The notes under the pieces: generated by a model
Database searches by the model: none
What the model was told of the DNA's origin: nothing
The model's input: only the letters and a program-made list of their open reading frames with translations
NCBI GenBank assembly: GCA_043821285.1
Contig: JBDRCZ010000029.1
Span: 14,959-78,958 of the forward strand
Source of the DNA: Candidatus Omnitrophota bacterium
GTDB taxonomy: Bacteria > Omnitrophota > Gorgyraeia > B26-G9 > JBDRCZ01
DNA length: 64,000 nucleotides
Direction of reading: 5' to 3'
Program-made: the position numbers and the translations under genes
Shown: piece after piece, positions 6,001-27,869 of the stretch
How the letters are laid out: every line of letters begins with the position of its first letter
Numbering within the stretch: position 1 is the stretch's first letter

Positions 6001-9000
6001 TGATAATAATCGCGCTGTGTCTGGGTAAGTGTCTCAGCACCTTCTGCACTTAATCTTTTTTCAAGCCCTCGGGCATTGTAACGGTGTTCTTGCACATAGT
6101 CTACCAAGTGTCTTACATATTTTGTATCCTTAGGATTAATCCGATATACCTCCATTAACCCTTCAGTTATATTGCCCTCCAATCTATACGGCTCAAAGAC
6201 CTGCATAGATGCCTGCATCCTTAATGCCTCAGTAAGCTCTACTCTTAAAGGCGCCCGTTCACCAGAAGGCAGTTTTACCTCAACCAATACCTGATCCCCG
6301 ATCTGAACATCTTTATCTAACAGGCGCCGGGCATCCTGATCACCGACTAATTGTACCTCTTTACCTAATTTTTCTCGCAGAGTATCGCTTAAAGGTTTAA
6401 TTTCATTGTGGGCTCTAATCAAATTTCCTAACTCTGACAAGTTTAAAGAATTAACTCCCTTTATAAGTTCTGCACCAAAAGAATTTTCCACGCCTAATGA
6501 CTCTCTTCTTAGAGAATTTCTAAAAATAATTTCGGCATTAGAAGAATCTCCTGCTAATGCCTTACCGGCTAATTCCCAGTGAATATCGCTTCTGCCTTCA
6601 GGTTTGCCTTCTGCCAGCCATATACTATGAGCAAGAAATTTTTGTAAGTTATCTTTTTTGCCATCAGCCGCATATTCGCTTAAGTATTCTAACCCTAAAC
6701 GGATATCCCTGCCCACGGTAGCAAGATTGCCTCGGCTAAAATGCTGGGTAATCATATCTGTTTGCTGCTCCACAAAACCCTGTTCTCTTAAATAGTCTGC
6801 CACTACAGGCACTAATTCGCCCACCCTTTCTAAAACCTGCATTTCTAAATCTGCACCCTGACGTAATGCCTCTCTTAAACTCCCGTATTTCCTTACCGTG
6901 GCAAAATTCTTCACAGTTTTCTCGGAATTTATCTTGCCATCAGCTTCTCTTACGGTAAGCAACTCAGCGTTTAGCCGGTTTAGGTTTGGCTTCATAAATA
7001 GTAATGCCCAACCTAAAGCAAAACGTTCTCCTTCAGAAAATGCCATACCACTATATCTGGCTAATGCCTGCTCAAACCCACCCGCGGCCTGAATATCAGC
7101 CGCAGTCAATGCTCCACTTACAACATCTGCATACGCACCAGCTCTGCGCACACTCTGCAAACCCCGTTCAATACCGGTAACAAAACCCGAAACAAAGGTC
7201 AAAGATTTTGCCTCAAGCACTAAACCAGAGGCAATACTTAGGAAAGAATTATTTGCGGCCATGCCTCGGGCAAGCGAGCCTTCGATACGTGCCATTGGCC
7301 GGCCAATAAATGCGCGCGCTTTATTATATGCGCCTTCTCCAGCCTTAGCACGGGTGAGTGCTTGGGGAGATTTGCTAAGTATTTCATCAGAATGGCGCAT
7401 CATCACCTTAATCATCGGCCCCATAAATTTCCCTTCTTTTGCTGCAGCAAACCAGCTTATTGCCCGGTTAGCAGTAAAAAAGCTTCCCCAATCCAAAGGT
7501 AAATACCCCTGTTCCTCAGTCCCTTCTCTAAACCATGTATATTCATCTCCAATCTTAAACTGCCAAGAGGAGTTGATTAATTCTTGATTTCCCGTAAAAC
7601 GTCCAACTATTCTATCCGCTCCCGTTTCTAACACATGTATCCCCGTATCCCAGACAGGGCTTGCCATATTCATAACCATAGAAACAAACGGCCATTTTAT
7701 TGCCCCTTCTAACGCATCCAGGGCTAATTGGTTTATGCCATCACCTGTAAACGGGGTCTTGCTTCTCCTTAATAAACCAGTTTGTAATTCCGCAGTCTCT
7801 ACCCTGCTATAATCTCGCACGTGACCACCAATACCTTTCACAAACTCCATACCCTGCGGTGAAATTGCCCATTTAAATAGTATTCCAAGAAACGCACCTT
7901 TTGCAAATGCTGCGACAAATTCACCGGGAGTTGAACTGGCATTTAACCCGCCAGTAAGATAACTCCAAGCAATATTTCCAAATCCTCCAAGCGAAGCGAC
8001 GGTAAGACCTCCAATCACACGAGAGTTAAGTGTACCACTATAAATACCCTTATACGCACTTTCTCCAAGCCTATAAACTCTCGATAGACGAGTGCTATTA
8101 GAAATCCCCTGGTACGCTGTTGTCCCAAGATGATAGACTCTGGCCAGACGAACTTGACTTACCGCAGGATTAGCTGCACTCATCGCAGCAGTTGCTGCTT
8201 GAGATACATTTGCCACGCCGCCAAAAACACCCAATAATCCGCCAAGAATAAATCCGCCGATGAACCCTTTGGTATAAGTGTGTACATTTAACGGGTCAAA
8301 ATGAAATCCGGCATCTTTATTAATCCGGCCTTGATCATCAGTCTCATAATCCCAGCCAAAATAGCTCTTGGCACTAAGTTCTAAAGCCCCTAAAAATCCT
8401 TTATCTTCTCCCTGGCTAAACATCTGCTGGGCTAAGACATTATTCACCAACATATCAACATTACCAAAAACCGTACCCAAGTTAAGCCCTGCTCTTAAGC
8501 TGTGCAAGCCTATGCCCTTAAGTCCCTGGCTAGCCGTCTGGGTAAGCAAAACATTTGCCCCAGATAAGCCAAGCACACTCAGCGTAGTTGTGGCAAATAT
8601 TGCAATATTTTGTTCAAAGCTTAAAAATTGGCGATTATTAACCACAAAAGACGCAGCATTTGCGGCTGCAACTGCCGTAACTCCCATACTTGAAGCTGCA
8701 CCTACTCTGCTTGCAACAGGGGCTATTTTTGTTGCTATTGGCTCAAGTTTTTCCGCGAATCTGGCTGCTAAGGAAAATTTACCAGTAAGCTTCGTACCAC
8801 CCTTAGCAAGTAAAGTGCCGCCTTTAGCAAGCAAAGTACCGCCTTTTAATAACCCCCCACCAACAAACAGCAGTGGTACAGTAGTCGTCAAATCAACCCA
8901 ATCAAGAACACTGTATCCTCTAAAATCCAAAACATCCCCTTTATTCGGCAAAACTAAAGGAATAACAAAACTCATCGGGTTATGGGTCAATTGCATCCGG

Positions 9001-12000
9001 GTCATGGCAAAATCCATTCTTGCTTTAGCAAGAACAATATTTTGGTCTAATGTTTGTATCCTCTGTGCATATCCATTACTATTAATAATCATTGCCGCAG
9101 TATTACGTGCATCAGGGTCCTTAATCTTCTCTAATATTGCTGCTGGGGATATATCTCTAACCCTATCTACATGAGCTGGAGTTACCTCCCCGGGACTGCT
9201 GATGTAAGCCACAGGATTATCTCCATCACTATTTATTCTGGGGTCAATATAAACGTCACTCTCATTCATACCTACGAATTTATCGATATCAATCCCTTGC
9301 TTTGCTAATTGTTGTAATAATTCCACATAAACTCTGTCTTTTTGCTGATTTAAACTTGCCTTTTCACCAACCCCGCCAAAATAATCTCCAGTATCATTAG
9401 TCCCTACCGCAGATTCCCGGATACGTTTTTCAATCCCTGCCTGCAGTATTGCGCCAATATCCGCAAGAAGCTGTATATCTTGAATAAAATTATACAGGGT
9501 TGGATTGTTCGTGTAAAGCTCCTGCATTTTATTAGAATATGCATCCCGGGCACTTTTATAGTCTATGACAACTTGAGAACGTGCTTGAAGCTGCTCCGGC
9601 GTAAACCTCACAAGTTCCTCCGAAGAAAGGTCAAAGCCTGGGTTATCTATATATAAATTAAGCCGCACATCATACATGGTTCTGGCATGCTGCAGGTCTT
9701 GCCATACTGCATATGTATTTCCATAATTAGTCTTTAGCTCGTTTACTTTGTCATTATACTGTTTAGATTTATTCATATAATTATCTACCGCCGCATTATT
9801 ATATTTATTCTCATCACTATTCCAATACGTGGCAATCGCATCCTGCACTTGTCCATTTATTTTACGCACATCAAATAAGGCCTCGTAAGTTTCCAAAGAC
9901 GCCTTTGCTAAATTAACATCTGCAAAATGTGCGTCGTCTTGCTCCTGAATAAGTGCCCGAACTGTAGGATCATCCTTATATTGCGCTAATACATCTGCAT
10001 AATTCTGCTCCTGTTTCATCAGCTCCTCTATGGACTGATAAGTTTTCGGCATATTTTCCTTAATCATCTTTCTTGTCTGGCACTCCTCACGTAACACCTC
10101 AATTGCCGGCCTTGCCGCGTCCAGTAACTCCGCAAGCCTGCCGCGAGAAAAAATTTCCGGAGTAGTTTCGTCTAATAAACCCATGTATGATAACGCAGAA
10201 TTGGCATTGAATTTTATCTTCTGCACATCATAAGAAATAAGTGGGCTCTCAATATCTATATGCATTACCCAAAAGCTACCTGGCTGGGCTGGAGCATCGC
10301 CGCATTCTGCCTTTTTAAGTACAATTATTCCCTGGGTTGGGTCTAAGGTGTCTAATTCGTCTAACGCCTTTTTATAAGTAGTACTATTACGCGTATCACC
10401 ATTAGCTATTGCGGCCTTATATCTTTCTTCAACTTCCCCCCTTAATTCAATATTGATAAGCAAAAAAGTATCAGGGCTTGTAAGGTCATCCAGTTCTGGA
10501 GCATAAGCGCCTGCTTTTTCTCCTTGCGTTATATAACGACCTGTGTTTTCATCAATTGTACCTGCTACAACAGGTATCTTCTCTCTTGCATCCTTCCATA
10601 ATTCTGCTATATCCCTTCCGCCTTCCTCTTCTGCAAAACCCCAAACTTTATCCCATGCATCGGTTATTGCCGCACTTGCTCCTTCAAGTACCTTTTGAGC
10701 TGATTCTGTTAAGTTATACCATGCCTGTGCAATCCCCTGTGGTTTTTCATAAGCTTCTCTCGCTAAGTCCTCAGTTCCCGATCCAATTGCTAATTTCCAC
10801 AAATTATCCGTTGCCTCATTAGCTAGTTCCATTAAATCTTTTACTGGTTTTGGCAAAGCTAACCCTAAGTTGTGTAATGCCTCACCAATTGGTCCAAGCC
10901 CACATACTAATTCTAATGCTCCCGGTCCATCCTCTGCTGCAGTTGGATATAACTTTGTTTGCAAGTCAGAAATTCTATTCTGTTCTTGCTGTAATAAAGG
11001 AAAGTTGGTAAAAAGATTACTTGTTAGCGGTTCTAACTTTTGCCTTAGACCATATAATATATTCACAAGCGGATCATTTGTATCAAGACCCTTAATCTCG
11101 ACTCTTCCATCTTCCGTTTGTATTATGTCATATCTATTAGTTATCTCTTCTTTTTTTTGATTAAAGAAATTCATTAAGTTATTTAACCCTGGAATAGTTA
11201 ACTCGGGCAGGTTTGGTGGTTTTGTCTGCTGTAAATAGGCGTTTTGCACTGCTGGCATACCAGTATTAGGATCAATAGGAGCGGCTGTCTGTGGATTTGT
11301 TGGACCAAATATTTGAGGTAATTGTGCCATAATGCCACCAACAACACCAGTTACACCATTTAACGTATGTATAAAGCTAACCTGCTCATCTAGAGATAAT
11401 TTTGATTGATTAGCCGGCGCTTCACTTGATTTACCAGCCGTAAAATAGCTATTATTTAAAGTTTCATCATCCAATAGTGGGATGTATCCCATATTGTCTA
11501 ACTCATAGGTCAAAGAACTTGGCCCCATAAATAAATTTTTCAACCCCTCCCACCCCGGGATATCTACTTGTGCTGCGGACATTGTTACGGGTATGTATCC
11601 TATGGAATCATCTTCTGATATGTATCCTAAATCCCAGGTATCTGTATCTATCGTCGTTTCAGTTAGCGGTGCAAAAAGCATTGCTCCTATGTCTAAAAAT
11701 GACGGCTCTTCCGGGCTCCAGGCTAATGTGTCCTCAGAAGCAACTGGAACATTGAATAAATCTACAAAATTTCTTGCCCCATCCAAAAGGGGATCTAAGG
11801 TAACTTGAGTTAAATCTATATTTGGCAGAGCTAAAGGTGATTGCGCCTCCTTATTAAGGTTATCCCAGACAAAGATATTTTCTTGAGGAGAAGGTGGCTG
11901 CTGGGGGTTATTGAATAAATTTAAAAAATTATTTGCAGCACTGGCCGCACCATTTAAAAAATTATCCCACCATGAAGTTTGCGGCGCTGTATTTGCATCC

Positions 12001-15000
12001 GTTGTGCCGGTGTCAGATGCATTATCTGTTGCCCCGGGTAAACTTGGATCATCAATCCCTGTTCCCCATGTAGTATCTCCTGTTGTTTGTCCGCTATGCT
12101 CTGCCATTGCCGCCGCCCATTTTGCTTTATTTTTAGCTACCTGTTCCGGGTCTACTTCATTTCCTGTCGTGTCCCCGCCAATCATCTTACCTTTCGTATC
12201 AAAATAAACTGTAACTCCGTTTAACACCTGCCGGCCGGAACCGTCTTTATTAAAATATATGTCCGCACCGCTCTTATGGTCTTTGGCATAAAAGGCCATG
12301 CCGTCTTCCGGGTCCAAATGGTAAGTCATCCATTTTGCCCCGGTAACATTCATTACAATAAATTCCGGATTACTATAGTCAAACGTGGATATCGTGCCTT
12401 GTTCATGGTCAATTAATTTTAGTCTCCGGTTAATATCATTCGCATCTCTTACATCTACGATAATACATCTACCTGTAACTTCATCCCCGCGGAAAACATT
12501 TATTGCCACGACCCCTTCTTGGCTCCAATCAAACACTGAGGTTGTGCCTTTTTCATGGTCAACCCGCTTAATCGTGCGCTCGGTCTGTGCGTCTTGATAC
12601 TCGGTCATACTAATCGGCAGGGTATTGCTGTCTCCATAGTAAACATCTATTTTAATTACCGCAGGATCACTGTGGTCGTAAATCCAGGTTTGGGTCGGGG
12701 TGATCATCTTTTCCCATTGGTTGGTTGCTCTATTTCTGTAAACCGTAGCAGTTATTTGGCCGGATGGGTTAATAATTGTTGATTGAAGGAGATTGGGATT
12801 AGTGTTGTTGTTATTAACATGAAACATAACATTGCCGTTTTGCTGTATAGTAAGCGGGGCATTACGGAAATCCGTTTGCAGGTTAACTGGCAGGGATAAG
12901 ATTATATTGTTTACTAAGTTAATATTGGAAATTAATGTATTCCTGTAAGTTGTATCATTCAAATTTTGCTGCACCGTAGCAATAGCCCGTTGCAGGTTTT
13001 GTCCCTGGTTTACATTAGTGTTAATCTGTGCGGCTACTACGGCTCTCACTGTCTCCCTGGGCACAAAACTGCCACTAGCAATTGCCGCAAGCTGTGCTGT
13101 GTCATTTACTGCATCATAAGGAGATATATATGCCCCGTTTTGTGCCGCGTTCATAAAAGCACCTTTGGCTGCGGCCCGGGCAATGTCTTGTGCCTGCTGG
13201 CTGTTCGGGTCCATGCCCTGGTTAATCAACTGCCGCATGGTTGCGTCCCAGGCCTGGTCACCAGCATAACCCGCAGTATCTGCTACTGGGATAGTTGCGC
13301 TACCACCACCATTATCATTACTGTCATCATCATCGTATAGATGACCACCGCCTCTTTCAATCTCATCTAATGCTGCTGCTCTCGCTACATAACCCGCTTC
13401 CTCATCTGATAACCCCTGTTGCTTAGCATAGTCCCATGCATCCTCTCCAGCATTTGCCCCTGCTGTTATCTGCATCTCTTGCTGAGTAAGTTTCCGGGAA
13501 TTGCCCTTGGCCTGGTCACTTAATACCTTGCCATCCCATAACCGGTTAAACTCCTTAGTGGTGAGTATCTTTTTCTCGCCATTATCAATAATCGTAACAT
13601 TATTGGAATCTATCCGGATTAATGTTACCCAGTGGCCTTCAAAGTGGATAATCACCGGCCGGTTAGTTTTAATTAAACTCTCCAGGTCCATTTCATAGCC
13701 GTCTAAATTAACCTGATATTTTGTCGCAATCATCTTTAAGGCATACATCGAGGTAAATACGTCTTGTCCGCGGATTACAACTTCTCCTTCCGCTAAAATA
13801 TCCTGCAGGATTAGTTCGTAAGCTAATCTTTGCTTATCCGTATCCTTCCCCTGTATATTAAGGAGAGCAGCTAAGGCATTGACCGCACAGTTAATAATAT
13901 TTATCACCGCATCCTTGGCCCAGTTAACCGCCTTGGAAATAAAGCTCGATACAATCTCACTTGCCGAGTATTTTGCACTAATCATGGCCTGGGCAATTGT
14001 TACCATTGACCGGTCAAGTTGAGTGGCAATCTTTAAGACATCTTCGGCGCTTACCATAAGCGATTTAAGTGCCAGAATAATCTCTTGGTCAGAATAATCT
14101 GCGTTTAACAGGGTGCGGTATATCTGATAATTACTAAAGGGAAGTTTTGCCTCTTTTATTGCGGCAATAATATCTGTGGCTGAGCGGTTGGCAGATTTAA
14201 GCAAGGCCGCTATTTCCACTAAGCCCTTACCCATCTGGGCAAAGCTGGTAATAATCTCGCTGTCCGTATATCCCTGCTGGAACATTTTTAAAACTAAGGC
14301 TTCCTGCCGGTAGTCTAATTTTATTAATGCGTGCATCATTACAAATGCTTCCTGCTGTTTTTGTTCTTCAATATTTTGCTCAGGTTTTACCCCTACCTTT
14401 CCAATTTCTGGCAGTACTTTATCCCGGTGCTGTTCGATTATTTCGCGTTTTGCCGCCTCTTCCTGCAAAAGCGATAATTTCTCCCGGTCTTCTCTTGTCT
14501 GTTCTCTGACTGGTCTTGAGATTAAACTCTCGGCCTCGTGTTCTGAATACCCGGCAGAAACCAATGCCTCATAAATCTCATCGGCAAAATACCCTTGTTT
14601 TAGCGCGGTTATTGCCACATCCCGGGCAGAATTACCGGATTTTTTAAGCAGGGTAATCATTGTGGTGAGGTCATAACCCGCAGCTCCCATACCTTTGATT
14701 GATTCTTTAATAAAACTAAGATTCGAACCAATACCGGCGGCATAATCCCGGGCAATTTTACTTTCGCTGCCCGCTTGCGGAAGAGAGAGTGTGTTTAGGG
14801 GGGAATAAGCGGTTTGGGTTATATCAATTTGTTCGGTTTTTACCCGCGGGGTGTTTTTGGTGAGTTCATCAAGAAGGTCTCTCTGTCCCTGTAGATAGCG
14901 AAAATCCGCAGCCAGGGAAAAATTGCTGTTGGTAAACAAAAATGCCTGAATTAATAATACGGTGATGAATTTAAACCATAATTTCTTTGTTATTATATTC

Positions 15001-15002
15001 AT
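1..15002 (-). CDS. giant multidomain secreted protein, 5' complete, 3' end beyond window (at least 5,000 aa). Order from N-terminus: signal peptide; ~33-aa helical repeats; C39-like peptidase domain (Ser at the Cys position); beta-rich repeats; Gly-rich hydrophobic/tandem-repeat region; SF2 DExH helicase core
   Basis: GGAGG then a 7-nt spacer then ATG at 15000-15002 on the minus strand. N-terminus MNIITKKLWFKFITVLLIQAFLFTNSNFSLAADF is signal-peptide-like. Manual translation of the reverse complement from 15002 down to base 1 met no stop, and the reading frame at base 3 matches the frame set at the ATG. Plus-strand ORFs across this span are all 268 aa or shorter and lie antisense. The minus-strand ORF is absent from the track, as expected if the track lists only frames closed by a stop inside the window. 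Internal motifs: GHWVTLIRIDSNNVTIIDNGEKK (C39 His region, about 13600-13700), VGGGKT (4888-4915), DEFH (4524-4535), QGIGRNRR (3536-3560). Confidence 0.8.
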   Translation of the reverse strand, partial: MNIITKKLWFKFITVLLIQAFLFTNSNFSLAADFRYLQGQRDLLDELTKNTPRVKTEQIDITQTAYSPLNTLSLPQAGSESKIARDYAAGIGSNLSFIKESIKGMGAAGYDLTTMITLLKKSGNSARDVAITALKQGYFADEIYEALVSAGYSEHEAESLISRPVREQTREDREKLSLLQEEAAKREIIEQHRDKVLPEIGKVGVKPEQNIEEQKQQEAFVMMHALIKLDYRQEALVLKMFQQGYTDSEIITSFAQMGKGLVEIAALLKSANRSATDIIAAIKEAKLPFSNYQIYRTLLNADYSDQEIILALKSLMVSAEDVLKIATQLDRSMVTIAQAMISAKYSASEIVSSFISKAVNWAKDAVINIINCAVNALAALLNIQGKDTDKQRLAYELILQDILAEGEVVIRGQDVFTSMYALKMIATKYQVNLDGYEMDLESLIKTNRPVIIHFEGHWVTLIRIDSNNVTIIDNGEKKILTTKEFNRLWDGKVLSDQAKGNSRKLTQQEMQITAGANAGEDAWDYAKQQGLSDEEAGYVARAAALDEIERGGGHLYDDDDSNDNGGGSATIPVADTAGYAGDQAWDATMRQLINQGMDPNSQQAQDIARAAAKGAFMNAAQNGAYISPYDAVNDTAQLAAIASGSFVPRETVRAVVAAQINTNVNQGQNLQRAIATVQQNLNDTTYRNTLISNINLVNNIILSLPVNLQTDFRNAPLTIQQNGNVMFHVNNNNTNPNLLQSTIINPSGQITATVYRNRATNQWEKMITPTQTWIYDHSDPAVIKIDVYYGDSNTLPISMTEYQDAQTERTIKRVDHEKGTTSVFDWSQEGVVAINVFRGDEVTGRCIIVDVRDANDINRRLKLIDHEQGTISTFDYSNPEFIVMNVTGAKWMTYHLDPEDGMAFYAKDHKSGADIYFNKDGSGRQVLNGVTVYFDTKGKMIGGDTTGNEVDPEQVAKNKAKWAAAMAEHSGQTTGDTTWGTGIDDPSLPGATDNASDTGTTDANTAPQTSWWDNFLNGAASAANNFLNLFNNPQQPPSPQENIFVWDNLNKEAQSPLALPNIDLTQVTLDPLLDGARNFVDLFNVPVASEDTLAWSPEEPSFLDIGAMLFAPLTETTIDTDTWDLGYISEDDSIGYIPVTMSAAQVDIPGWEGLKNLFMGPSSLTYELDNMGYIPLLDDETLNNSYFTAGKSSEAPANQSKLSLDEQVSFIHTLNGVTGVVGGIMAQLPQIFGPTNPQTAAPIDPNTGMPAVQNAYLQQTKPPNLPELTIPGLNNLMNFFNQKKEEITNRYDIIQTEDGRVEIKGLDTNDPLVNILYGLRQKLEPLTSNLFTNFPLLQQEQNRISDLQTKLYPTAAEDGPGALELVCGLGPIGEALHNLGLALPKPVKDLMELANEATDNLWKLAIGSGTEDLAREAYEKPQGIAQAWYNLTESAQKVLEGASAAITDAWDKVWGFAEEEGGRDIAELWKDAREKIPVVAGTIDENTGRYITQGEKAGAYAPELDDLTSPDTFLLINIELRGEVEERYKAAIANGDTRNSTTYKKALDELDTLDPTQGIIVLKKAECGDAPAQPGSFWVMHIDIESPLISYDVQKIKFNANSALSYMGLLDETTPEIFSRGRLAELLDAARPAIEVLREECQTRKMIKENMPKTYQSIEELMKQEQNYADVLAQYKDDPTVRALIQEQDDAHFADVNLAKASLETYEALFDVRKINGQVQDAIATYWNSDENKYNNAAVDNYMNKSKQYNDKVNELKTNYGNTYAVWQDLQHARTMYDVRLNLYIDNPGFDLSSEELVRFTPEQLQARSQVVIDYKSARDAYSNKMQELYTNNPTLYNFIQDIQLLADIGAILQAGIEKRIRESAVGTNDTGDYFGGVGEKASLNQQKDRVYVELLQQLAKQGIDIDKFVGMNESDVYIDPRINSDGDNPVAYISSPGEVTPAHVDRVRDISPAAILEKIKDPDARNTAAMIINSNGYAQRIQTLDQNIVLAKARMDFAMTRMQLTHNPMSFVIPLVLPNKGDVLDFRGYSVLDWVDLTTTVPLLFVGGGLLKGGTLLAKGGTLLAKGGTKLTGKFSLAARFAEKLEPIATKIAPVASRVGAASSMGVTAVAAANAASFVVNNRQFLSFEQNIAIFATTTLSVLGLSGANVLLTQTASQGLKGIGLHSLRAGLNLGTVFGNVDMLVNNVLAQQMFSQGEDKGFLGALELSAKSYFGWDYETDDQGRINKDAGFHFDPLNVHTYTKGFIGGFILGGLLGVFGGVANVSQAATAAMSAANPAVSQVRLARVYHLGTTAYQGISNSTRLSRVYRLGESAYKGIYSGTLNSRVIGGLTVASLGGFGNIAWSYLTGGLNASSTPGEFVAAFAKGAFLGILFKWAISPQGMEFVKGIGGHVRDYSRVETAELQTGLLRRSKTPFTGDGINQLALDALEGAIKWPFVSMVMNMASPVWDTGIHVLETGADRIVGRFTGNQELINSSWQFKIGDEYTWFREGTEEQGYLPLDWGSFFTANRAISWFAAAKEGKFMGPMIKVMMRHSDEILSKSPQALTRAKAGEGAYNKARAFIGRPMARIEGSLARGMAANNSFLSIASGLVLEAKSLTFVSGFVTGIERGLQSVRRAGAYADVVSGALTAADIQAAGGFEQALARYSGMAFSEGERFALGWALLFMKPNLNRLNAELLTVREADGKINSEKTVKNFATVRKYGSLREALRQGADLEMQVLERVGELVPVVADYLREQGFVEQQTDMITQHFSRGNLATVGRDIRLGLEYLSEYAADGKKDNLQKFLAHSIWLAEGKPEGRSDIHWELAGKALAGDSSNAEIIFRNSLRRESLGVENSFGAELIKGVNSLNLSELGNLIRAHNEIKPLSDTLREKLGKEVQLVGDQDARRLLDKDVQIGDQVLVEVKLPSGERAPLRVELTEALRMQASMQVFEPYRLEGNITEGLMEVYRINPKDTKYVRHLVDYVQEHRYNARGLEKRLSAEGAETLTQTQRDYYQKQQEYQQAYLKGETQQQLALRQQSISQSLDRVNLEILKDINALIGENPQGFSEATIIGGQALLERNIKQGLTSEKLSTRNISTYIIDAYIRQLDRVADAEISNLIDRVKTARQELEHSPLIREKNELLNKIDNLRDKRRQLAERRDSLENGTGIEAFDNSVRLIDKQIERLNQGINELNKQIDRRVEGILGKQEIQLIAGSARMNMGVEMLIKLYPELEIVSGMRKMGKEIEAVVQGLESGEIEVFVDKETGKVQLQGAEGEIITEFNRDILVEGKISKDAVQERVREITGRGEKMVEGLTGLVLRIVFEKAHADLIEAKKLELKKQGRDVTKEELTGLLDVERSTAQIKMVVELLKENSVYQAVGGGKTLGFIMEMLVRGEIAKALGKSLNQLLVVKTGEAEQTVLAGDKAHGGKGSIKLQELVDIFGYELKDGNKYYTERNEQGLVDVLLSPDKIVVVDQTRLGFLSLSKNQRLCDALAMQDVVRFDEFHIPFSSKVTYITSETSLLLEKEFIEAAFHAKKALDTIFQKEIGVPEKGKIGRAQDIAEARKEEHAYVYRDRGEYCLNGKALEIINSHNIKERTAKAYFDARFAEKQETYDVKDKEIKPVENGNIAEDRVFSDRYFIAALYAKESANGPDIVDRNKLFYSKSSSQSTVAEVLGMFGRQASVLGASGTLETVELMHMLHLGKGVAKITPSTYKDVVTRGFASEPAIIRNIIREIVSSRRNGRGVLILVKDPVMYELVRKFLNDNLGETIELINTSASEKKVGDLANDAQNRIILSNVKGATGIDYIGVVDLVIADGHNWTRSELYQGIGRNRRNVAEGLRRVFYLKGALREKTASGVRLQELKRMQVTYGREVKDQAKELIRNAELMQSEELSAALVHHIREAAYSRGVIEPVKHMMRLATSEQKRDSLEAELRAILDKKDTAEVNLRLSHHARNAEEIIEQTIRGVASSSRELFDLIAKGDYGKAVKSRAALLRDIAESILTSEGYQKIQARRDISFREAVNIREITAVAKHRRFLDRILSEEISHANDVSQNRTVVHVIQQIDQARRKGGEARLTLAEKAKLFKNFDRIVLSNGTRGSPELLSRVAVFLPNDSPVTQVLEDLALQGVSLNTPQQAQTILDFISENIINSSAFADYDTQDKEEVIDFVLGMLNPEVSYDNLIIAATVYNFLTDEAKQEVEESSLLSQTFLSQPEEIAAAMLKPKVYKAPIESWQKRRQVKKDGFALSRVQQFAFTNTLGLSKKAVEQSGQRMSFVEFEARAEALLTQQNPAIATSANVEALAYTLLKLEAAGRQQEGAGLSWAGFKTARTQSAQVAVLGMEDNLRGHRLFAADKQNERAKLNAKRAELNAEIASAWKSGDFQRAIMLSQQIRNKGEKSWLDEVWDKIKGSFVRKLGTDILSLALPLGSLAIILGLVSMPISIPIISSIFSAGSSLPFPMLALSLLSTPLSFGWQAKKMYKYYVQGEAAISVDTLLNQTSKNLGVLPVLNELNLPEEYASRIEALITKQNAAAESKAGPEDNDGETENEPLTLADLGNDQIAQTIARLINPASPSIERLKVRDEQLAGFADFIEQSNLDQVSGTGKDSLKEQLKNRITEARQLPNLLISEHQFENLINELNQYTHQAALDSLDQVVADAKGRIKQYKKDVQEHNDSPQQRQELLGDLLTALVNNQMITEQEKNAFINNPDQKNLAIKPEYKKVHNLLIELSQQPDPAAYLEKIANADDAEAEQMLNLLVELGLRPQGINFDKRVLRVLIADLKEAMQKADQQLEKILNSGLRDPYIKKYARAMRNSTLAHFANNAFDENDQKQENPYQVRLNTLTGYASLTVDELRRDLEQDPEREIIVMTIRNGRVVRSKKERVFKDLEAWLNWRIEGLAQTLSDSDLTVQGRDWVEAEQEFYQAGRERLQEIGVEQPILDQSFNQAREEATAFKNEITNLVEGLIKQHFSMLSDGLKGQLKGEILKALRTVTLSGENSRKARKSDQAA
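8796..8860 (-). repeat. in-frame 21-nt tandem repeat (about 2.5 units) encoding (LLAKGGT)n within the giant gene
   Basis: accacccttagcaagtaaagt / gccgcctttagcaagcaaagt / accgcctttt... on the plus strand. Confidence 0.7.
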
Positions 15003-15022
15003 AATATAGCCTCCAAAAAAAC

Positions 15023-15045
15023 GGTTTTGTAAAATACTTAACCAC
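15023..15045 (-). promoter_or_regulatory. conserved leader motif GTGGTTAAGTATTTTACAAAACC (minus-strand sense), 21 nt upstream of the giant-gene ATG
   Basis: Near-identical motif found at 41624-41646 (upstream of clpC) and 42947-42969 (upstream of mcsB). Each copy sits 21-26 nt 5' of the start codon. Confidence 0.45.
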
Positions 15046-15087
15046 AAAAGTCACAGAGTTACATAAGAATAGAATAGTTATAGAATG

Positions 15088-15684: not shown

Positions 15685-15942
15685 TTACTTCGCGCCCTCT
15701 GTGGTTAATTTTTTTGTGTATTTAGTGTTTTCCTTAATATCCAGTAAGAGCAGTAACATCTTATTTATCGCAAATAAAACAATAAAATTAAATATTCCGA
15801 GAAATAACGTAACAAAACCCATAAACCGCGGGGCATCCGGCCCGCCGCCGCCAAAGAAAATAATCAACGTTAGCACCAGAAAAAACACGCCAATTATCCA
15901 GGCGGTAATCAAAGCAACCCGGGACACAATATTTATCATCAT
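15685..15942 (-). CDS. small hydrophobic membrane protein, hypothetical
   Basis: 85-aa ORF with two hydrophobic stretches flanking a GGGGPDAPRF segment. Confidence 0.35.
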   Translation of the reverse strand: MMINIVSRVALITAWIIGVFFLVLTLIIFFGGGGPDAPRFMGFVTLFLGIFNFIVLFAINKMLLLLLDIKENTKYTKKLTTEGAK

Positions 15943-15947
15943 AAAAA

Positions 15948-16061
15948 ATTTCCTTTAGCTTGACTATCATTGTCTCAAGACTACAGGTCATTATGCCAAG
16001 CTGATAAGCCTTTGCAGCACCGGAAATTTTTTATCCGTTTGAAAACCGTAGGTTTTCAAAC
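15948..16061 (+). repeat. interspersed repeat family D copy 1 (about 90 bp) followed by a 10-bp-stem hairpin GTTTGAAAAC-cgtagg-TTTTCAAAC
   Basis: About 75% identical to 16961-17049. The hairpin module recurs at 44990-45015. Confidence 0.5.
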
Positions 16062-16307
16062 TTTCCATCCCAAACGCCACCCTGCGACAAGACCGCAGCG
16101 AATAGGCAATTTACTAGTTTCCGGTGCTTCGCACCATCGCTAATTCATCCCTATGCCATGAGTACAGATAATTCTTAGCGTTTTTTTAACGTTCAATAAA
16201 AAATAGATAGGCTAAAACAGATTACATCCGCAACACCATGACACAGAGCGGATATAAATAAATATTGTCTCTTTGCTATCTTTATAGTCAAAGGAAATAA
16301 TAAATCT

Positions 16308-16350
16308 TGTTAATCAGGTAAATCCTGTCAGGATTTATCTATATTTTTTT
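16308..16350 (+). repeat. partial copy of repeat family F (ttaatcaggtaaatcctgtcaggattt palindrome)
   Basis: Shares the taaatcctgtca core with 19229-19318 and 27641-27735. Confidence 0.35.
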
Positions 16351-16416
16351 CATCGGTGTTCTTTTTAATCTGCGATCATCATGCATCTTCTCATCTGTGA
16401 TCATCCCTGCCTGCCG

Positions 16417-16731
16417 TTAGGTAGGTGTGTTCCGGTACTTTCTCATATAAGCACGCATGTATTCCCGGTGTTGTTTTTTTCGTTTGATGCGGTAGGCCTT
16501 TATCTTTTCCGGATGCTTCTTACGCCATTTTCTTAATTGCTCACGGCGCATATTCTGCCAGTGGGGATCACTGCTTTGGCTATATTTAAAATAATCGGGA
16601 TTTTTCATGCGCCAGTTTGCTAAATTAAGCAGGTGCCGTTCATGCTGGCATTTTTTTCTGGTACAGACTTTTTGATGGCGTGGATGATACTGGCTTGGTT
16701 TAAACCTCTTCCCGCATATTCGGCAAATCAT
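16417..16731 (-). CDS. basic CxxC zinc-ribbon protein, hypothetical
   Basis: 104-aa ORF starting MICRICGKRF with a later Cys cluster, then a highly Lys/Arg-rich tail. Confidence 0.4.
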   Translation of the reverse strand: MICRICGKRFKPSQYHPRHQKVCTRKKCQHERHLLNLANWRMKNPDYFKYSQSSDPHWQNMRREQLRKWRKKHPEKIKAYRIKRKKQHREYMRAYMRKYRNTPT

Positions 16732-16737
16732 AACATG

Positions 16738-16788
16738 AAATTCTAAATGTCCCGCCTAGCAAACTGGCGGACAGGCAAATTTCAAATG
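16738..16788 (+). repeat. partial MITE-like family C element (cccgcctagcaaactggcggacaggcaaat module)
   Basis: Matches the internal inverted-repeat module of the 48666-48870 element. Confidence 0.4.
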
Positions 16789-16810
16789 AAAAACTAAACA
16801 AAATAATACA

Positions 16811-16836
16811 ATAAAAAAAATTCCTTCGGAATCTTT
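16811..16836 (-). terminator. hairpin plus U-tract (AAAGAUUCCGAAGGAAUUUUUUUUAU on the minus-strand transcript) at the distal end of the family A repeat
   Basis: Short GC-poor stem (attcc/ggaat, extendable with one G-U pair) followed by 7-8 U. The same structure is present in every family A copy. Sits downstream of the ROK regulator gene. Confidence 0.35.
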
Positions 16837-16958
16837 TTATCCATTTAAAAACCTCTCGTGTTCAAACCTTCCCTTAACAATGAATTAAATATGCCAATCT
16901 ACACCCCAAATCCCAAGTTATCCACAGATTGAAAATCTTATTGTTTCCTATACGTTAA
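16811..16958 (+). repeat. interspersed repeat family A copy (about 150 bp)
   Basis: ataaaaaaaattccttcggaatcttttt ... ttatccacagattgaaaatcttattgtttcctatacgttaaaa. Four further near-identical copies in the window. Confidence 0.8.
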
Positions 16959-16960
16959 AA

Positions 16961-17049
16961 AATTTCCTCAAGCCTAACTATCATTATCTCAAGATTACCG
17001 GGTATTATGTCAAGCTAATCAGACTATGCAATACCGGAAATTTTTTATG
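16961..17049 (+). repeat. repeat family D copy 2, overlapping the 3' end of the ROK gene
   Basis: aatttcctcaagcctaactatcattatctcaagattaccgggtattatgtcaagc... aligns to 15948-16036. Confidence 0.5.
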
Positions 17050-18298
17050 CGTTGATAAATATTTCTCTGATGACTAAACTTGCTGCCCCCAAGGCCACGG
17101 CATTTTCACCAAGACGCGAAGGAACAATTTTAACCATGCTCGCCGGTTCTTCAAATGCCATCCTTCTTACCATCCGTCTAATCGGCTCAAGTAAGAGATC
17201 CCCGGCCTGCTCCATCCCCCCGCCAATAACAACTATTTCCGGATTAAATAAGTTGATGAGATACGCCGTCCTGATCCCTAAGTTAAGTCCGGCTTCATCA
17301 ATAATCTCACTGGCGAGTTTATCGCCCTGACGCGCGGCTTCAATAACAACACTACCGTTAATTTTATCTAAGTTATTGCCAACAAGTTCACGGATTTTTG
17401 ACTCCTGATCGCCTTTAGAAAGCCTCTTGCGTGCTTCATCACTAATCCCTAAATCCACCCCCCAAGGTTTAAATAACCCCTCCAGACCTTTGGACCAGGC
17501 TGCATCCTTATTCGTATCTCCGGTAGAATTTAGCTGCAGTTCCCCGGCACTTCCGCCCGCACCGCAATAAATCTCTCCTTTAATAATAATCCCGCAGCCA
17601 ACATCTGAATACATATAAAGTATGTTTTCGATTTCTGCATCTAAGCCGATACGTTTCTCGCCAAACGCCGCCACCGTGGCATCATTGCCAATAAATGTCG
17701 GTATACCAAATTCTCTCTCAATCAATGCCTTAATCGAGGCATAACTTGCTGCGGTTTTTCCGCGTTTGGAATCAGTATCCCGGACCGTACCGGCCTTAGC
17801 ATCAATAACTCCGCACAGGCCAATACCCAGCCCTTTTATCTTCTTTGCCTCAACCTGAAATTTTTCCATGACCTCATAGACAAGTTCTATTGCCTTTGTT
17901 ACTACCTCCTCCATTGAGTCCTTTGGACGCGGCTTTTTAATCTTAATTATCATGTTTAAGGACAAATCCGTAAGTACCGCAATAAGATGCTGCGGGCCAA
18001 TATCAATGCCAATAACAAAACAGTTCTTTGAGTTTAGCTCGACTAAGGTCGGTTTACGTCCACCACTGGACACATCCAGCCCTTTTTCAATAATTAAGTC
18101 TTTTTTAATAAAATTATTCGCATAATTGGAAACCGTAACAATATTATACTTGGTAATGCGTGAAATTTCGGTCCGGGTAACCGGGCCATAACGTCTAATC
18201 ACCTCTAAAATATCTAAATTCTTCCTCTCCCGGTCCGACAATACCTGATCCTTGAATAACGCCTGCCGCATATTTCCCCTCCTCAATGAGCCCGCCAA
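17045..18298 (-). CDS. ROK family transcriptional regulator (NagC/Mlc/XylR-like)
   Basis: N-terminal wHTH (LEVIRRYGPVTRTEISRITKYNIVTVSNYANNFI) followed by a ROK sugar-kinase-like domain with Gly-rich segments (GIDIGPQH, GCGIIIKGEIYCGAGGSAGE). Confidence 0.85.
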   Translation of the reverse strand: MAGSLRRGNMRQALFKDQVLSDRERKNLDILEVIRRYGPVTRTEISRITKYNIVTVSNYANNFIKKDLIIEKGLDVSSGGRKPTLVELNSKNCFVIGIDIGPQHLIAVLTDLSLNMIIKIKKPRPKDSMEEVVTKAIELVYEVMEKFQVEAKKIKGLGIGLCGVIDAKAGTVRDTDSKRGKTAASYASIKALIEREFGIPTFIGNDATVAAFGEKRIGLDAEIENILYMYSDVGCGIIIKGEIYCGAGGSAGELQLNSTGDTNKDAAWSKGLEGLFKPWGVDLGISDEARKRLSKGDQESKIRELVGNNLDKINGSVVIEAARQGDKLASEIIDEAGLNLGIRTAYLINLFNPEIVVIGGGMEQAGDLLLEPIRRMVRRMAFEEPASMVKIVPSRLGENAVALGAASLVIREIFINA

Positions 18299-18642
18299 AA
18301 AACATGGCGGGCGAATTGATCCCGCAGCTTAAGGAGAAATTGTCGAAGAGAATTTCCCCTTGTCTAAGCAAGGGATCTTATTAAGATTATTCCTTAAATG
18401 AGCAGACAATTTACGGAGTGTCAGCTCCGTAAATTGCAGGACTACGTCCGTCTGCAAATTTAATTCCTGCCCGCCAATCCTTGTGGCGGGCGCCAATTCC
18501 ACCACAAAGCGCTGACGGATCTTCATCTTTGTGGCGGATAAGCTTATTTTTGCGCAGCAAAAATAAAAATTAATTCTTTTTAAAAGATACTTTTTAAATT
18601 TTTTTAACTTGTGTAATTATGATAACACAATTATAAATTAGT

Positions 18643-18672
18643 TGTCAAGCGTTATCCGTACAAAATATAATA
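18643..18672 (+). promoter_or_regulatory. near-consensus sigma70 promoter (TTGTCA, 18 nt, TATAAT) pointing into a family A repeat with no plus-strand CDS for about 680 bp
   Basis: ttgtcaagcgttatccgtacaaaatataat read directly. The next plus-strand CDS starts at 19355. Confidence 0.4.
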
Positions 18673-18693
18673 GTTGTACTTCTTTCACTCGCA

Positions 18694-18840
18694 ATAAAAA
18701 AATTCCTTCGGAATCTTTTTATCCATTTAAAAACCTTTCGTGTTAAAACCTTCCCTTAACAATGAATTAAATATACCAATCTATACCCCAATTCCCTTGT
18801 TATCCACAGATTGAAAATTTTATTGTTTCCTATACGTAAA
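18694..18840 (+). repeat. interspersed repeat family A copy
   Basis: About 90% identical to 16811-16958, including ttatccacagattgaaaat. Confidence 0.8.
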
Positions 18841-18942
18841 TAAAAATAGATGTCCGCCTTCTCTAATAAACCTGCATCCATGAGAACTGATATATCTAAG
18901 CAATTCTTTCCTTTTCATATACTTATTTGCTCTTCTTGAAAA

Positions 18943-18991
18943 TTAGCCCCGGGAGAAAATATCAACAGGCTCTGTTAAAAAACAATGTACC
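18943..18991 (+). repeat. short repeat family E copy 1
   Basis: ttagccccgggagaaaatatcaacaggctctgttaaaaaacaatgtacc, compared with 21932-21985 ggattaaccccgaaagaaaatatcaaccggttttgttacaaaaaaaatgtgcac. Confidence 0.45.
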
Positions 18992-19228
18992 AACTTAAAT
19001 TAGTATAAAACATATTTACTGCAATATTGTTTAATTGATATTCTGACGGAGCAAACAGGATAAAAAAAGACCGCGAGCAGAAAAAAATGACGAATGAAGA
19101 ACGCCAAAAGTAAAAACGCAAAAGAATAAAATTATCACACAAATCACACGAATTACACGAATAAATTAGTAATGAGTATTACGCATAAAAAATAAATAAA
19201 AAATTTTACCACAGAAAAAATACAAAAC

Positions 19229-19318
19229 CAGGCAGGATTAACGGGATAACCCTGATAAAAGGTAATCAGGATAATCATGTAAATCCTGTCAAAAAAATAT
19301 TTATTTGAATTTATTTGT
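19229..19318 (+). repeat. repeat family F copy 1 (caggatt...aatcctg inverted repeat, then ttaatcatgtaaatcctgtcaaaaaaatatttatttgaatt)
   Basis: Aligns to 27641-27735. Lies immediately upstream of the plus-strand ATPase gene. Confidence 0.5.
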
Positions 19319-19354
19319 ACTTTTTGCATTTTCGCTTGCATTTAGCAGCACTAT

Positions 19355-20521
19355 ATGGTATCCTCGAGATGTATGGTAAATAGAACCTTTTGGCAAAAGC
19401 AGATTGAAGCATTATGGAAAGAAAAATCTATCATCTGGCTCTCCGGCATCCGTAGAGCAGGAAAGACCTTTCTTTCTAAAAGTCTTCCGAATATCGAATA
19501 TTTTGACTGCGAATTACCCCGAACTCGCAGAATGTTAGAAGACCCTGAAGGATTTTTGGAAACGTTTAAAGAGAAACGCATTATTCTTGATGAAATTCAT
19601 CGTCTTAAGAATCCTTCAGAACTTCTAAAAATTGCTGCTGACTATTATCCTTCTATACAAGTACTGGCAACCGGCTCCTCTACTTTAGGGGCATCAAGAA
19701 AATTTAAGGACACCCTTACCGGCAGAAAACGCTCCCTTTGGCTAACACCAATGAATCTCAACGACCTCGCTGATTTTAATAATATAAATTTATCTCACCG
19801 CTTTTTACACGGAGGGCTCCCCCCGTTTTTTATGGCGCAAAAATTGCCGGAAAAAGATTTCCAAGAATGGATTGACGCTTACTGGGCAAAAGACATCCAA
19901 GAATTATTTCGCTTGGAACGCCGTTATTCCTTCCAAAGATTTTTTGAACTGCTTATGGCTCAAAGCGGCGGCATTTTTGAGGCTACAAGATTTGCAAAAT
20001 TGTGTGAAGTAAGCCGTACAACAATAACTAATTACCTTAAAGTACTCGAAGCAACCTTTGTTGCTCATGTGATCCGCCCATTCAGTTCCCACCGTCCAAC
20101 AGAAATTGTTTTAGCACCGAAGATCTACGGTTTTGATACTGGGTTCGTCTGTTACCACCGTGGTATAACCACATTGCGTTCTGAAGACATGGGACTCCTC
20201 TGGGAACATATTGTATTAAATGAACTTCAGGCAGAATTACAAACACGCAATATTTACTATTGGCGTGATAAACGCGGTCACGAGCTTGATTTTATTCTTA
20301 TACAAAAAAATAAAATTCCCCTGGCGATTGAATGTAAAAGCACATTAGCAGAAAACAGTATTCGAACACGAAACATCCAAGCCTTCTTAACCCAATACCC
20401 ACAAGCAAAAATATTTTATGTCTGTCCTGACGTCAAACGAGTCTATCAGATAAAACTAAAAACCACAAAAATCACAGTAACCAATCTTCCAACACTGCTC
20501 AAAGCACTAAACAACGCATAA
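19355..20521 (+). CDS. AAA+ ATPase of the COG1373 type (AAA_14 N-domain with DUF4143 C-domain)
   Basis: Walker A GIRRAGKTFL and Walker B ILDEIH. Length of about 390 aa and C-terminal region are typical of this family. Only sizeable plus-strand gene in the window. True start may be the Met at 19373. Confidence 0.75.
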   Translation: MVSSRCMVNRTFWQKQIEALWKEKSIIWLSGIRRAGKTFLSKSLPNIEYFDCELPRTRRMLEDPEGFLETFKEKRIILDEIHRLKNPSELLKIAADYYPSIQVLATGSSTLGASRKFKDTLTGRKRSLWLTPMNLNDLADFNNINLSHRFLHGGLPPFFMAQKLPEKDFQEWIDAYWAKDIQELFRLERRYSFQRFFELLMAQSGGIFEATRFAKLCEVSRTTITNYLKVLEATFVAHVIRPFSSHRPTEIVLAPKIYGFDTGFVCYHRGITTLRSEDMGLLWEHIVLNELQAELQTRNIYYWRDKRGHELDFILIQKNKIPLAIECKSTLAENSIRTRNIQAFLTQYPQAKIFYVCPDVKRVYQIKLKTTKITVTNLPTLLKALNNA

Positions 20522-21931: not shown

Positions 21932-21985
21932 GGATTAACCCCGAAAGAAAATATCAACCGGTTTTGTTACAAAAAAAATGTGCAC
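21932..21985 (+). repeat. short repeat family E copy 2
   Basis: See 18943-18991. Confidence 0.45.
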
Positions 21986-21999: not shown

Positions 22000-22212
22000 T
22001 CATGCATTCAAGGCAAGTTTATGTGCCTTTTGTTCAACTGTGTAAATTAAATCTTGAATGGTATCTACTTCTTGCTCTTCAAAATATGCTTCCCCACACT
22101 GTTCACATATCCAAGCAGGAACACTATCGAAGGTTACGTGACAGCCATTTTTATCAATATGAAGCGGCGTAATTCCTTGTTTCATGATACCATGGCAATG
22201 AATACATTTCAT
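22000..22212 (-). CDS. YgiT-type zinc-finger protein (MqsA N-terminal-like)
   Basis: MKCIHCHGIMKQGITPLHIDKNGCHVTFDSVPAWICEQCGEAYF matches the YgiT pattern of two Cys pairs with NG..V and VPA..C..CGE. Confidence 0.6.
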   Translation of the reverse strand: MKCIHCHGIMKQGITPLHIDKNGCHVTFDSVPAWICEQCGEAYFEEQEVDTIQDLIYTVEQKAHKLALNA

Positions 22213-22646
22213 TTTTTTATCCTCACTTTATAGTCCTCAGACCATTCCTTAGGGTCTGAGATATACGCTGTAATTATAGCAAATTTTGGCACTGCATATC
22301 AAGTTCTTATTGCTTAAACTCTTTTAAAAACGTTGTCTTATAAACTTGCCTTGCTACAAAAATAATATCTATTTCTGGTTGGCTAATTTCTTCTTGTACT
22401 TTTTTAGAATAAGGCGGTTAATTATCATGTTGACCAACATTACCTATTCGGTAAAAAAAGTTAATATTTATTTTTCCAATCTGCTTACTTTTAGAGATTT
22501 TGGGAATGTTAGAATCGGGAATTTTGAATTTGCAATTTAAATCAGAAATTGTTAAACCCGAATATTTGCCGATAATCTTTGCTTCTGGCTGGGCTGGGTT
22601 GGGTTTTAGGGGTGAGAGTACGTGTAAAAAATATAGCGTTTGTACT

Positions 22647-26540: not shown

Positions 26541-26665
26541 AGTTAATTCCAAATGACAAATTTCAAAATCCAAATTAATCTTCAAATAACTCAATCCCAA
26601 AAATCCATGCCCGAGGCGGGTGGAGGAAAAATCAAACATCAAAATGACAATGTAAAATTCAAATA
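26541..26665 (+). repeat. MITE-like family C element (partial/variant) just upstream of the 1,292-aa gene
   Basis: aattccaaatgacaaatttcaaaatccaaat ... cccgaggcgggtggagg ... aaatgacaatgtaaaattcaaat. Confidence 0.45.
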
Positions 26666-26773: not shown

Positions 26774-27043
26774 TTAAATACTGCGATAGGCGGATGGCCG
26801 GAGGGTGATTAAAAGGACCCCAATGCGCTTATCTCTCTTATCTATTTCATAAATTATACGATAATCACCTGCACGGTAACGATATAAAATCTTTTTTACT
26901 TTTAATCGCTTAATGTTTTGTCCCTGAAAAGGATTATTTTCTAAATCTTCAAAACATCTGTTTAGGCGATTGGCTAATTTAGACGAGCAATTTTGATAAA
27001 ATTTCAATGCCTGCGGCAGCAAAATTACCTTAAATTTATCCAC
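26774..27043 (-). CDS. type II toxin of the RelE/ParE family
   Basis: 89 aa, ending RYRAGDYRIIYEIDKRDKRIGVLLITLRP, a typical RelE/ParE C-terminus. Overlaps the upstream antitoxin gene by 8 nt. Confidence 0.75.
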   Translation of the reverse strand: MDKFKVILLPQALKFYQNCSSKLANRLNRCFEDLENNPFQGQNIKRLKVKKILYRYRAGDYRIIYEIDKRDKRIGVLLITLRPSAYRSI

Positions 27044-27838: not shown

Positions 27839-27869
27839 TGTCATTTGACATTTGAGATTAAATAAAGCC

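Follow-up and report, generated by a model that had tools for sequence, protein, structure and literature searches.

The DNA analysed here (the window, 64 kb in length) contains a sequence of about 150 nt that recurs between genes in one orientation, raising the question of whether its copies are the transcribed tails of the genes that precede them, each ending in a terminator, or simply the marks of a mobile repeat. An earlier note, made from the letters alone, had proposed a family of 3'-UTR-derived sRNAs or REP-like terminator cassettes. We could observe directly the repeat itself (family A), its anatomy, its placement relative to genes and promoters, its recent spread and its modular relatives.

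Our MAFFT alignment, repeat search and nhmmer profile bore out the presence of an interspersed repeat of about 150 bp in at least five copies and in a single orientation. Four full and three partial copies were found, whose hairpins (hp2 and T) and whose relative D6 are described below:

16811-16962, minus strand (the RNA sense), full copy 1 (MAFFT alignment, repeat search, nhmmer profile)
18688-18845, minus strand (the RNA sense), full copy 2 (MAFFT alignment, nhmmer profile)
53248-53405, minus strand (the RNA sense), full copy 3 (MAFFT alignment, nhmmer profile)
57324-57482, minus strand (the RNA sense), full copy 4 (MAFFT alignment, nhmmer profile)
44957-45022, minus sense, partial copy (E = 6e-15), the 3' module alone, with a perfect hp2, the T hairpin and the U-tract
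35783-35825, minus sense, partial copy (E = 3e-7), the 5' module alone, without a terminator
16021-16067, minus sense, partial copy (E = 1e-6), a perfect 11-bp hp2 fused to D6 where the T hairpin is expected

The nhmmer profile was built from the four full copies, which it recovered from the 64-kb window with E-values of about 1e-50 each, all as plus-strand matches; the three partial copies were oriented in the same way, a uniformity that rests on five to seven copies within one block of gene strand and GC skew. The repeat search grouped the same four full copies into one family (D1) and added the module-level families D2 and D3. The mean column identity of the four full copies with their flanks was 87% in the MAFFT alignment, and the 141-nt core was 93-97% identical between full copies; the value of more than 85% given earlier was correct but understated. 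The 21-nt hairpin/U-tract core AAAGATTCCGAAGGAATTTTT occurred exactly five times, on the minus strand every time, with approximately 0.02 occurrences expected by chance. The four full and two of the partial copies had been listed in the earlier note, which missed the partial copy at 16021-16067. A further piece that it assigned to the family, at 19203-19225, was unmatched by the profile and resembles only the copy-specific continuation of the 35783 partial copy (CTGTGGTAAA...TTTTATTT). The intergenic placement described there held for all copies except that at 18688-18845, which gives a truncated hicA-like ORF its last codons and stop.

Read as minus-sense RNA, the unit begins with a U-rich start (UUUUnUUn) and continues through a 5' module (ACGUAUAGGAAACAAUAAGAUUUUCAAUCUGUGG, a 5-bp hairpin of -1.2 kcal/mol) and a body of approximately 50 nt to hp2 and the T hairpin. 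The full copies end with hp2 followed by AAAAAGAUUCC-GAA-GGAAUUUUUUU; the T part can also be written UGGAUAAAAAGAUUCC-GAA-GGAAUUUUUUU(A), with an A-tract before the hairpin and 7-8 U after it. About 85 nt of the family A body lie outside the hairpin modules for which roles are proposed, and the body is as conserved as the hairpins. The hairpins were mapped as follows:

53258-53278, minus strand, T hairpin and U-tract, AAAGAUUCC-GAA-GGAAUUUUU
16816-16836, 18698-18718, 44962-44982 and 57334-57354, minus strand, identical T-hairpin 21-mers, each an exact match to 53258-53278
53283-53310, minus strand, hp2 hairpin, a "swapped module" of the earlier note
16841-16868, 18723-18750, 57359-57386, 44987-45014 and 16035-16062, minus strand, hp2 counterparts (gap-free alignment of the six versions)

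The hairpin and U-tract said to end the repeat on the minus strand are present as five identical 21-mers, but the stem is weak. The RNA of each occurrence reads GAUUCC-GAA-GGAAUU and continues with 5-6 further U, which gives 7-8 consecutive U. The stem contains two G-C pairs and its core has a free energy of -3.1 kcal/mol, reaching -7.3 kcal/mol only when the A and U tracts are paired as well. The T hairpin has the position of a canonical intrinsic terminator, namely a hairpin with a U-tract (7-9 nt) directly behind it, sense-oriented and at the 3' end of a transcription unit, but not its stable, G+C-rich stem, and a consensus terminator scan that required at least three G-C pairs did not list it. 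Efficient termination at T is not assured, given a core of -3.1 kcal/mol with two G-C pairs. The longest invariant run in family A (41 nt) covers the T-hairpin region; with P = 0.07 it was not significant, and we rejected an extra constraint on this region.

The internal modules that were thought to be swapped between copies aligned column by column without gaps and are variants of one hairpin, hp2. This hairpin is intact in the copies at 57330, 44957 and 16021, where all of its 11 pairs are standard, including two to three G-U wobbles in 57330 and 44957; in three of the four full copies it is degraded by two to three substitutions, with two broken pairs in 16811 and 53254 and three in 18694. 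No compensatory change in hp2 pairs was found among the six versions. Two of the pairs are G-C in some versions and G-U in others, a change that only the minus-sense RNA tolerates. All modules and variants of family A folded more stably in the minus sense than in the plus sense, because the changes are from G-C to G-U on the minus strand.

The 3' module with an intact hp2 was far more stable than shuffled sequences (z = -4.1 and -4.4, with z = -4.1 for the 44957 partial copy), and the whole element showed no extra folding stability over shuffled sequence (z = 0.02). Covariation, which the earlier note had named as a check for conserved RNA structure, was essentially absent: RNAalifold on the four copies gave one compensatory pair in 43 (G-C, A-U and A·C, in the body) and an unfavourable covariation term of +0.75, a test that is uninformative here because the copies are too similar (93-97%). 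An alternative pairing, of the 5' module with the left arm of hp2, is also present. At gathering thresholds, Rfam detected one tRNA in the window (56057-56144) and nothing at family A, and a search of 15800-19400 relaxed to E = 10 returned nothing that overlaps the copies there. Three further candidate functions were rejected. The open frames of the unit share no conserved start codon, and the changes between copies are mostly non-synonymous, contrary to a small ORF; matches to an internal sigma-70 promoter were weak (e.g., TTGAAC-N18-GATAAA, without the final T); and the excess of TGGATAA in the window, which might have indicated a CsrA-type GGA/UGGAUAA sponge, comes from the copies themselves.

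The T hairpin has a longer relative, D6, which occurs twice:

15942-16039, minus strand, D6 copy 1, after the hp2 at 16035-16062; its 3' arm AAAGGAAATTTTTT abuts the ATG of an 85-aa membrane ORF (15685-15942)
16956-17053, minus strand, D6 copy 2, overlapping the ROK stop codon and directly preceding family A copy 1
TGAGATAAT, minus strand, in the loop of D6 copy 2, with a candidate start region downstream at approximately 16975

The two D6 copies are 83% identical to each other. Both arms of D6 (GGATAAAAAATTTCCG ... AGGAAATTTTTTA) are homologous to the T hairpin, and a 65-nt insert stands in place of the loop base A of T. This insert carries the promoter-like sequence TTGACA/TTGGCA-N19-(TGA)GATAAT/GACAAT, directed in the same way as the genes. 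D6 may stop incoming transcripts and let loop-initiated ones through, since a transcript that starts within the loop has no 5' arm and could escape the hairpin. The 3' arm of D6 copy 1, AAAGGAAATTTTTT, looks like the ribosome-binding site for the 85-aa membrane ORF. In the partial copy at 16021-16067, D6 takes the place of T behind hp2. The intergenic regions share a common pool of modules, made up of the 5' module, the body, hp2 and T or D6, and they also hold, in varying combinations, two further kinds of repeat:

26551-26603, 27818-27859, 29313-29365, 33388-33484, 43848-43944, 44862-44914, 45062-45103 and 48828-48869, both orientations, family B palindromes
16738-16780, 48681-48723 and 48807-48849, both orientations, a GC-rich hairpin repeat (TGTCCGCC...GGCGGGACA) that adjoins family A or B

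Family B is A+T-rich and built on CAAATG/ATTTGGATTTTGACATTTG. Its copies lie immediately past stop codons and immediately ahead of start codons, and long inverted pairs often bracket intergenic regions, as do 33388-33484 and 43848-43944 (97 nt, 88% complementarity). Family B repeats in the same intergenic regions as family A occur in both orientations, which indicates that the single orientation is specific to family A and not a property of the whole window.

Of the 40 annotated features (39 genes and one tRNA), 38 lie on the minus strand, in agreement with what had been said of the neighbouring genes, and the GC skew is negative, with one sign, across the whole window. Because nearly all genes and the GC skew point one way, orientation relative to genes and orientation relative to replication are inseparable for family A. 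At the left end of the window, a stop-free frame of at least 5016 codons (3-15050, minus strand) runs off the end; it belongs to a giant gene of the kind reported from Omnitrophota. The features that bear on the placement of the copies are as follows:

18619-18648, minus strand, sigma-70-type promoter upstream of ROK, TTGACA-18-TATCAT with TG (11 of 12 matches)
53152-53183, minus strand, BirA-operator-like palindrome, TTGTTAACC-N14-GGTTAACAA, with TGTTAAAAT (extended -10) in the spacer, directly before bioB
18820-18918, minus strand, truncated hicA-like ORF of 32 aa, residues 4-26 of which align with positions 2-25 of the 58-position HicA_toxin model (E = 0.08, the best Pfam match)

The full copies begin 0-35 nt past whatever closes the preceding unit: a stop codon, the D6 copy behind ROK or the truncated hicA ORF. 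Each of the five T hairpins is located at the end of a transcription unit, on the sense strand (ROK, hicA', flavin-reductase/rubredoxin, macB and an ABC ATPase). Immediately ahead of copy 1 is the D6 copy that overlaps the ROK stop codon; from the end of the copy 1 U-tract to the start of a 104-aa ORF there are 80 nt. Copy 2 abuts the truncated hicA-like ORF, and the ROK promoter lies approximately 45 nt downstream. Copy 3 begins 4 nt past the flavin-reductase/rubredoxin stop codon and ends approximately 100 nt ahead of bioB and the bio operon. Copy 4 begins 35 nt past the stop codon of macB, at the end of the tolC-macA-macB unit, and its U-tract ends 27 nt ahead of a gene for a two-CW protein (a genuine gene, NCBIfam E = 2.8e-24). 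The 44957-45022 partial copy follows the ABC ATPase gene, enclosed by the two arms of a family B palindrome, and that at 35783-35825, between mlaF and mlaD, is the only intra-operon copy and lacks both hp2 and T. The downstream neighbours are unrelated to one another (the 104-aa Zn-ribbon-like ORF, ROK, bioB, the two-CW protein and a class IV aminotransferase), and the upstream stop codon is nearer than the downstream start in four of five copies.

At two copies, those ahead of ROK and bioB, the promoter of the next unit lies downstream of the U-tract. The palindrome before bioB, which together with its extended -10 was read directly from the sequence and resembles the BirA operator consensus, ends at the bioB start codon; from this position, the bioB mRNA would have little or no leader. 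Two relatives that lack family A (L002 and L005) share this operator layout. With regard to the hicA junction, we sought a 3' remnant of hicA beyond copy 2 and found it absent; a simple insertion was rejected, since the 3' half of the gene is not present downstream of the copy.

The truncated hicA is one of several toxin-antitoxin-type genes in long intergenic gaps of the window. An RHH antitoxin and a ParE toxin are encoded at 26774-27269 (minus strand; Pfam 6e-5 and 2e-9), a weak MqsA/YgiT-like zinc-ribbon ORF lies at about 22190-22400 (minus strand), and a MazE/AbrB-like ORF at 61760-62008 (minus strand) is located upstream of tolC. A 44-nt repeat at 18942-18985 and 21934-21977 (82% identical, AACAGAGCCTGTTGATATTTTCTCCCGGGGCTAAT in the minus sense) occurs once directly ahead of the hicA remnant and once directly behind the MqsA-like ORF, and may be a shared regulatory site of toxin-antitoxin-like cassettes.

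The transcription and termination of family A, as well as its mode of spread, we infer from these features of the DNA, and we lean, with modest confidence, towards an element that rides in 3' UTRs. Family A would be transcribed as the tail of whichever minus-strand gene stands upstream, and the hp2 and T modules would most likely end, or at least attenuate, transcription and provide the upstream mRNA with a structured 3' end. The upstream transcription unit would in this way be separated from the next one. Copies would be kept only where the terminator is harmless or useful, i.e., at unit ends and in the sense orientation, and within operons only terminator-less copies would survive. The placement at unit ends, the two downstream promoters and the terminator-less copy between mlaF and mlaD fit a 3'-UTR terminator cassette. 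The geometry described by the earlier note stands and the context supports its cassette reading, but its modules are not swapped, the stem is weak and the whole element folds like shuffled sequence (z = 0.02). At copy 4, the 27 nt before the two-CW gene leave no room for a promoter, and termination there would be incomplete, with expression of that gene by read-through.

That family A was amplified recently to its present multi-copy state is indicated by the identity of 93-97% between copies, by the hicA truncation at one junction and by a contig of the same organism with its break within the repeat. That contig, L001 (a Logan contig of 1293 bp, or 1.3 kb), comes from sample SRR2544004, a deep-subsurface (deep-groundwater) biofilm from Aspo (PMC5364579). 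It encodes an identical BioB, matches window positions 53080-53290 with 100% identity over 200 aligned bases, and ends inside family A, as would be expected if the repeat collapses short-read assembly graphs; it is the only public trace of the organism. In a homology search with BioB, the named best matches were Omnitrophota MAGs and the nearest non-self protein was 69% identical, which places the organism among the Omnitrophota. Two proteins of the window, looked up by exact sequence, had no recorded match. Exact-pattern scans with two family A cores (26 and 21 nt) returned nothing from 185,579 species-representative genomes or from JGI metagenomes, nor did one scan of IMG/VR or blastn of family A against phage and plasmid collections. 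Six bio-operon loci from relatives contained no copy, and the two longest stop-free translations of family A, used as protein queries to reveal spurious ORF calls on other contigs, gave no candidates.

Family A, a non-coding repeat of about 150 nt that is interspersed and lineage-specific, is not a classical cut-and-paste MITE. A search for terminal inverted repeats (TIRs; repeat search, two copies with their flanks) detected only the internal T and hp2 hairpins, and the flanks of five copies are T-rich at both ends without a consistent direct repeat that would mark a target-site duplication (TSD). None of the ORFs in the 64-kb window encodes a transposase, RAYT or TnpB. For comparison with IS200/IS605-type elements, which have subterminal hairpins at both ends, strand-specific insertion, a Y1 transposase in the genome and neither TIR nor TSD, we note for family A the absence of TIR and TSD, the single orientation, a 5' hairpin of only 5 bp and -1.2 kcal/mol, and no transposase encoded in the window. 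Insertion behind pre-existing terminators, in the manner of class C group II introns, was rejected since the upstream flanks fold like shuffles and copy 3 has no hairpin there.

The main rival to the terminator cassette is a strand-specific selfish element. On this account, which we consider unlikely, family A would be a purely selfish or decaying mobile repeat, its hairpins would be recognized by a transposase or nuclease whose gene lies elsewhere (for example, a REP/RAYT- or IS200/IS605-like single-strand system), and its orientation would reflect insertion relative to the replication fork. Consistent with this are the identity of 93-97%, which points to recent spread, the truncation of hicA at one junction, the presence of hairpins near both ends without TIR or TSD, as in single-strand transposition, and the one-sign GC skew, by which all copies lie on one replication strand. 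The T-hairpin region also contains the longest invariant run (41 nt), but at P = 0.07 this run is not significant; the 5' hairpin has merely 5 bp and -1.2 kcal/mol, and the 64 kb are without a transposase, RAYT or TnpB. Such an element would, moreover, leave unexplained the placement after stop codons and the terminator-less copy within an operon, and the changes in hp2 are tolerated as G-U solely in the transcribed sense. A more unusual view, for which we would allow very little probability, is that family A spreads via its own transcript, SINE-like, or that D6 is a promoter inside a terminator loop. An RNA ending at T would be reverse-transcribed and inserted at T-rich sites behind genes; this view rests on a unit that extends from a U-rich tract to its own terminator U-tract, is co-oriented with transcription, has no TIR or TSD, is 93-97% identical between copies and adjoins a truncated hicA. 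Class C group II introns and attC sites, too, sit after genes or terminators, and the copies of family A, which are locked in orientation, lack TIR and TSD and adjoin gene ends, could be solo ends or fragments of such a larger element (such as an IS200/IS605-TnpB right end together with its guide RNA scaffold, a group II intron or an integron attC). We hold this to be most improbable: Rfam gave no match to the intron, omega-RNA or HEARO models, the insertion points are not consistently preceded by a hairpin, RYYYAAC/GTTRRRY core sites are absent, as is an overall palindrome, and the genes between the copies are housekeeping operons rather than cassettes.

Two further explanations assign the function to the RNA itself. 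A family of trans-acting sRNAs, cut from 3' UTRs or transcribed from promoters of their own (for copy 1, possibly the promoter-like sequence within D6), could share a seed in the body and have common targets. The size of about 150 nt with a terminator-like 3' end, the conservation of the body, which equals that of the hairpins, the single possibly compensatory body pair (G-C, A-U, A·C) and the TTGACA-N19-(TGA)GATAAT of the D6 upstream of copy 1, directed into the element, would agree with such a family. Nevertheless, we consider it quite improbable: scanning and inspection revealed no conserved sigma-70-like promoter within or just upstream of the unit, the fold is about that of shuffled sequence, there is no Rfam match up to E = 10, the GGA and UGGAUAA motifs are unenriched beyond the copies themselves, the youth of the copies accounts for the conservation of the body, and dozens of near-identical sRNA genes would be unusual. 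A hairpin and U-tract upstream of a gene also have the shape of an attenuator, and family A could be a 5' leader acting on the downstream gene, as the 27 nt between the end of copy 4 and a start codon and the alternative pairing of the 5' module with the left arm of hp2 might suggest. This is scarcely probable, since the genes that follow the copies are unrelated, ROK and bioB have their promoters beyond the element, and four of five copies are nearer to the upstream stop than to the downstream start. The sRNA family, the attenuator and the fragment of a larger element are all less likely than the terminator cassette or the selfish element.

If family A does end transcripts, a single repeat, amplified recently, would define a sizeable share of the transcription unit boundaries in this Omnitrophota lineage (five T hairpins and two D6 variants in the 64-kb window) in place of individually evolved terminators. 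The repeat would then help to predict operons in a phylum that has hardly any genetics, and would exemplify mobile non-coding DNA that rewires 3' ends. Family A also breaks the short-read assemblies of its host and is a possible lineage marker in deep-groundwater metagenomes.

Among known repeats, REP/BIME sequences are abundant non-coding hairpin repeats in transcribed 3' intergenic regions, for which stabilization of mRNA 3' ends or termination has been proposed (PMC2817692, PMC3733652, PMC3993855). Those of Enterobacteria and Pseudomonas resemble family A in forming hairpins, in their 3' intergenic location and in their mosaics with other repeats. However, REPs are G+C-rich palindromes of 20-40 nt with a GTAG/CGTC head, alternating orientations and a link to RAYT, whereas family A is about 150 nt in length, A+T-rich and of a single orientation, with no GTAG/CGTC at the bases of its hairpins and no RAYT in the window. 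The bcr1-bcr18 repeats of the Bacillus cereus group (approximately 100-400 nt, in tens to hundreds of copies) are transcribed in UTRs or operon spacers in about half of the cases, and RNA-level roles have been proposed for some of them (PMC3446304). They are lineage-specific and intergenic, as is family A, but share no sequence similarity with it. Okstad et al. are said to have described bcr1-3 in 2004 as MITE-like, with inverted ends and a TTTAT target duplication, and family A has neither. Correia/NEMIS elements of Neisseria and ERIC elements of Enterobacteria are transcribed intergenic sequences of 100-160 nt that may carry terminators, promoters or processing sites and alter the expression of their neighbours (PMC3184786). 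They insert in either orientation and have long TIRs, and Correia elements produce a TA duplication; family A, in contrast, has no TIR and one orientation.

The BRE of Bordetella, a repeat of approximately 90 bp found through the sRNA bprJ, had gone undocumented and is lineage-specific and transcribed, with hints of mobility but no known mechanism (PMC3110155). It is shorter than family A, sometimes tandem and from another phylum, and the two share no sequence. In their build, the BOX elements of Streptococcus pneumoniae, in which boxA, boxB and boxC occur in varied combinations, resemble the 5' module, body, hp2 and T or D6 of family A, but they differ in sequence and host and their modules are tandemly repeated. 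The definition of BOX is not known to include a terminator with a U-tract. Family A thus differs from MITEs in TIR and TSD (as seen in Correia, RUP and bcr1), from REPs in size, composition, tag and orientation, and from integron attC sites in having neither core sites nor an overall palindrome and housekeeping operons as its neighbours. It is a new family, known so far from one Omnitrophota-like genome, and poses no challenge to current concepts; comparable repeat families occur in many bacteria, and the kind of repeat to which it belongs is already familiar among them.
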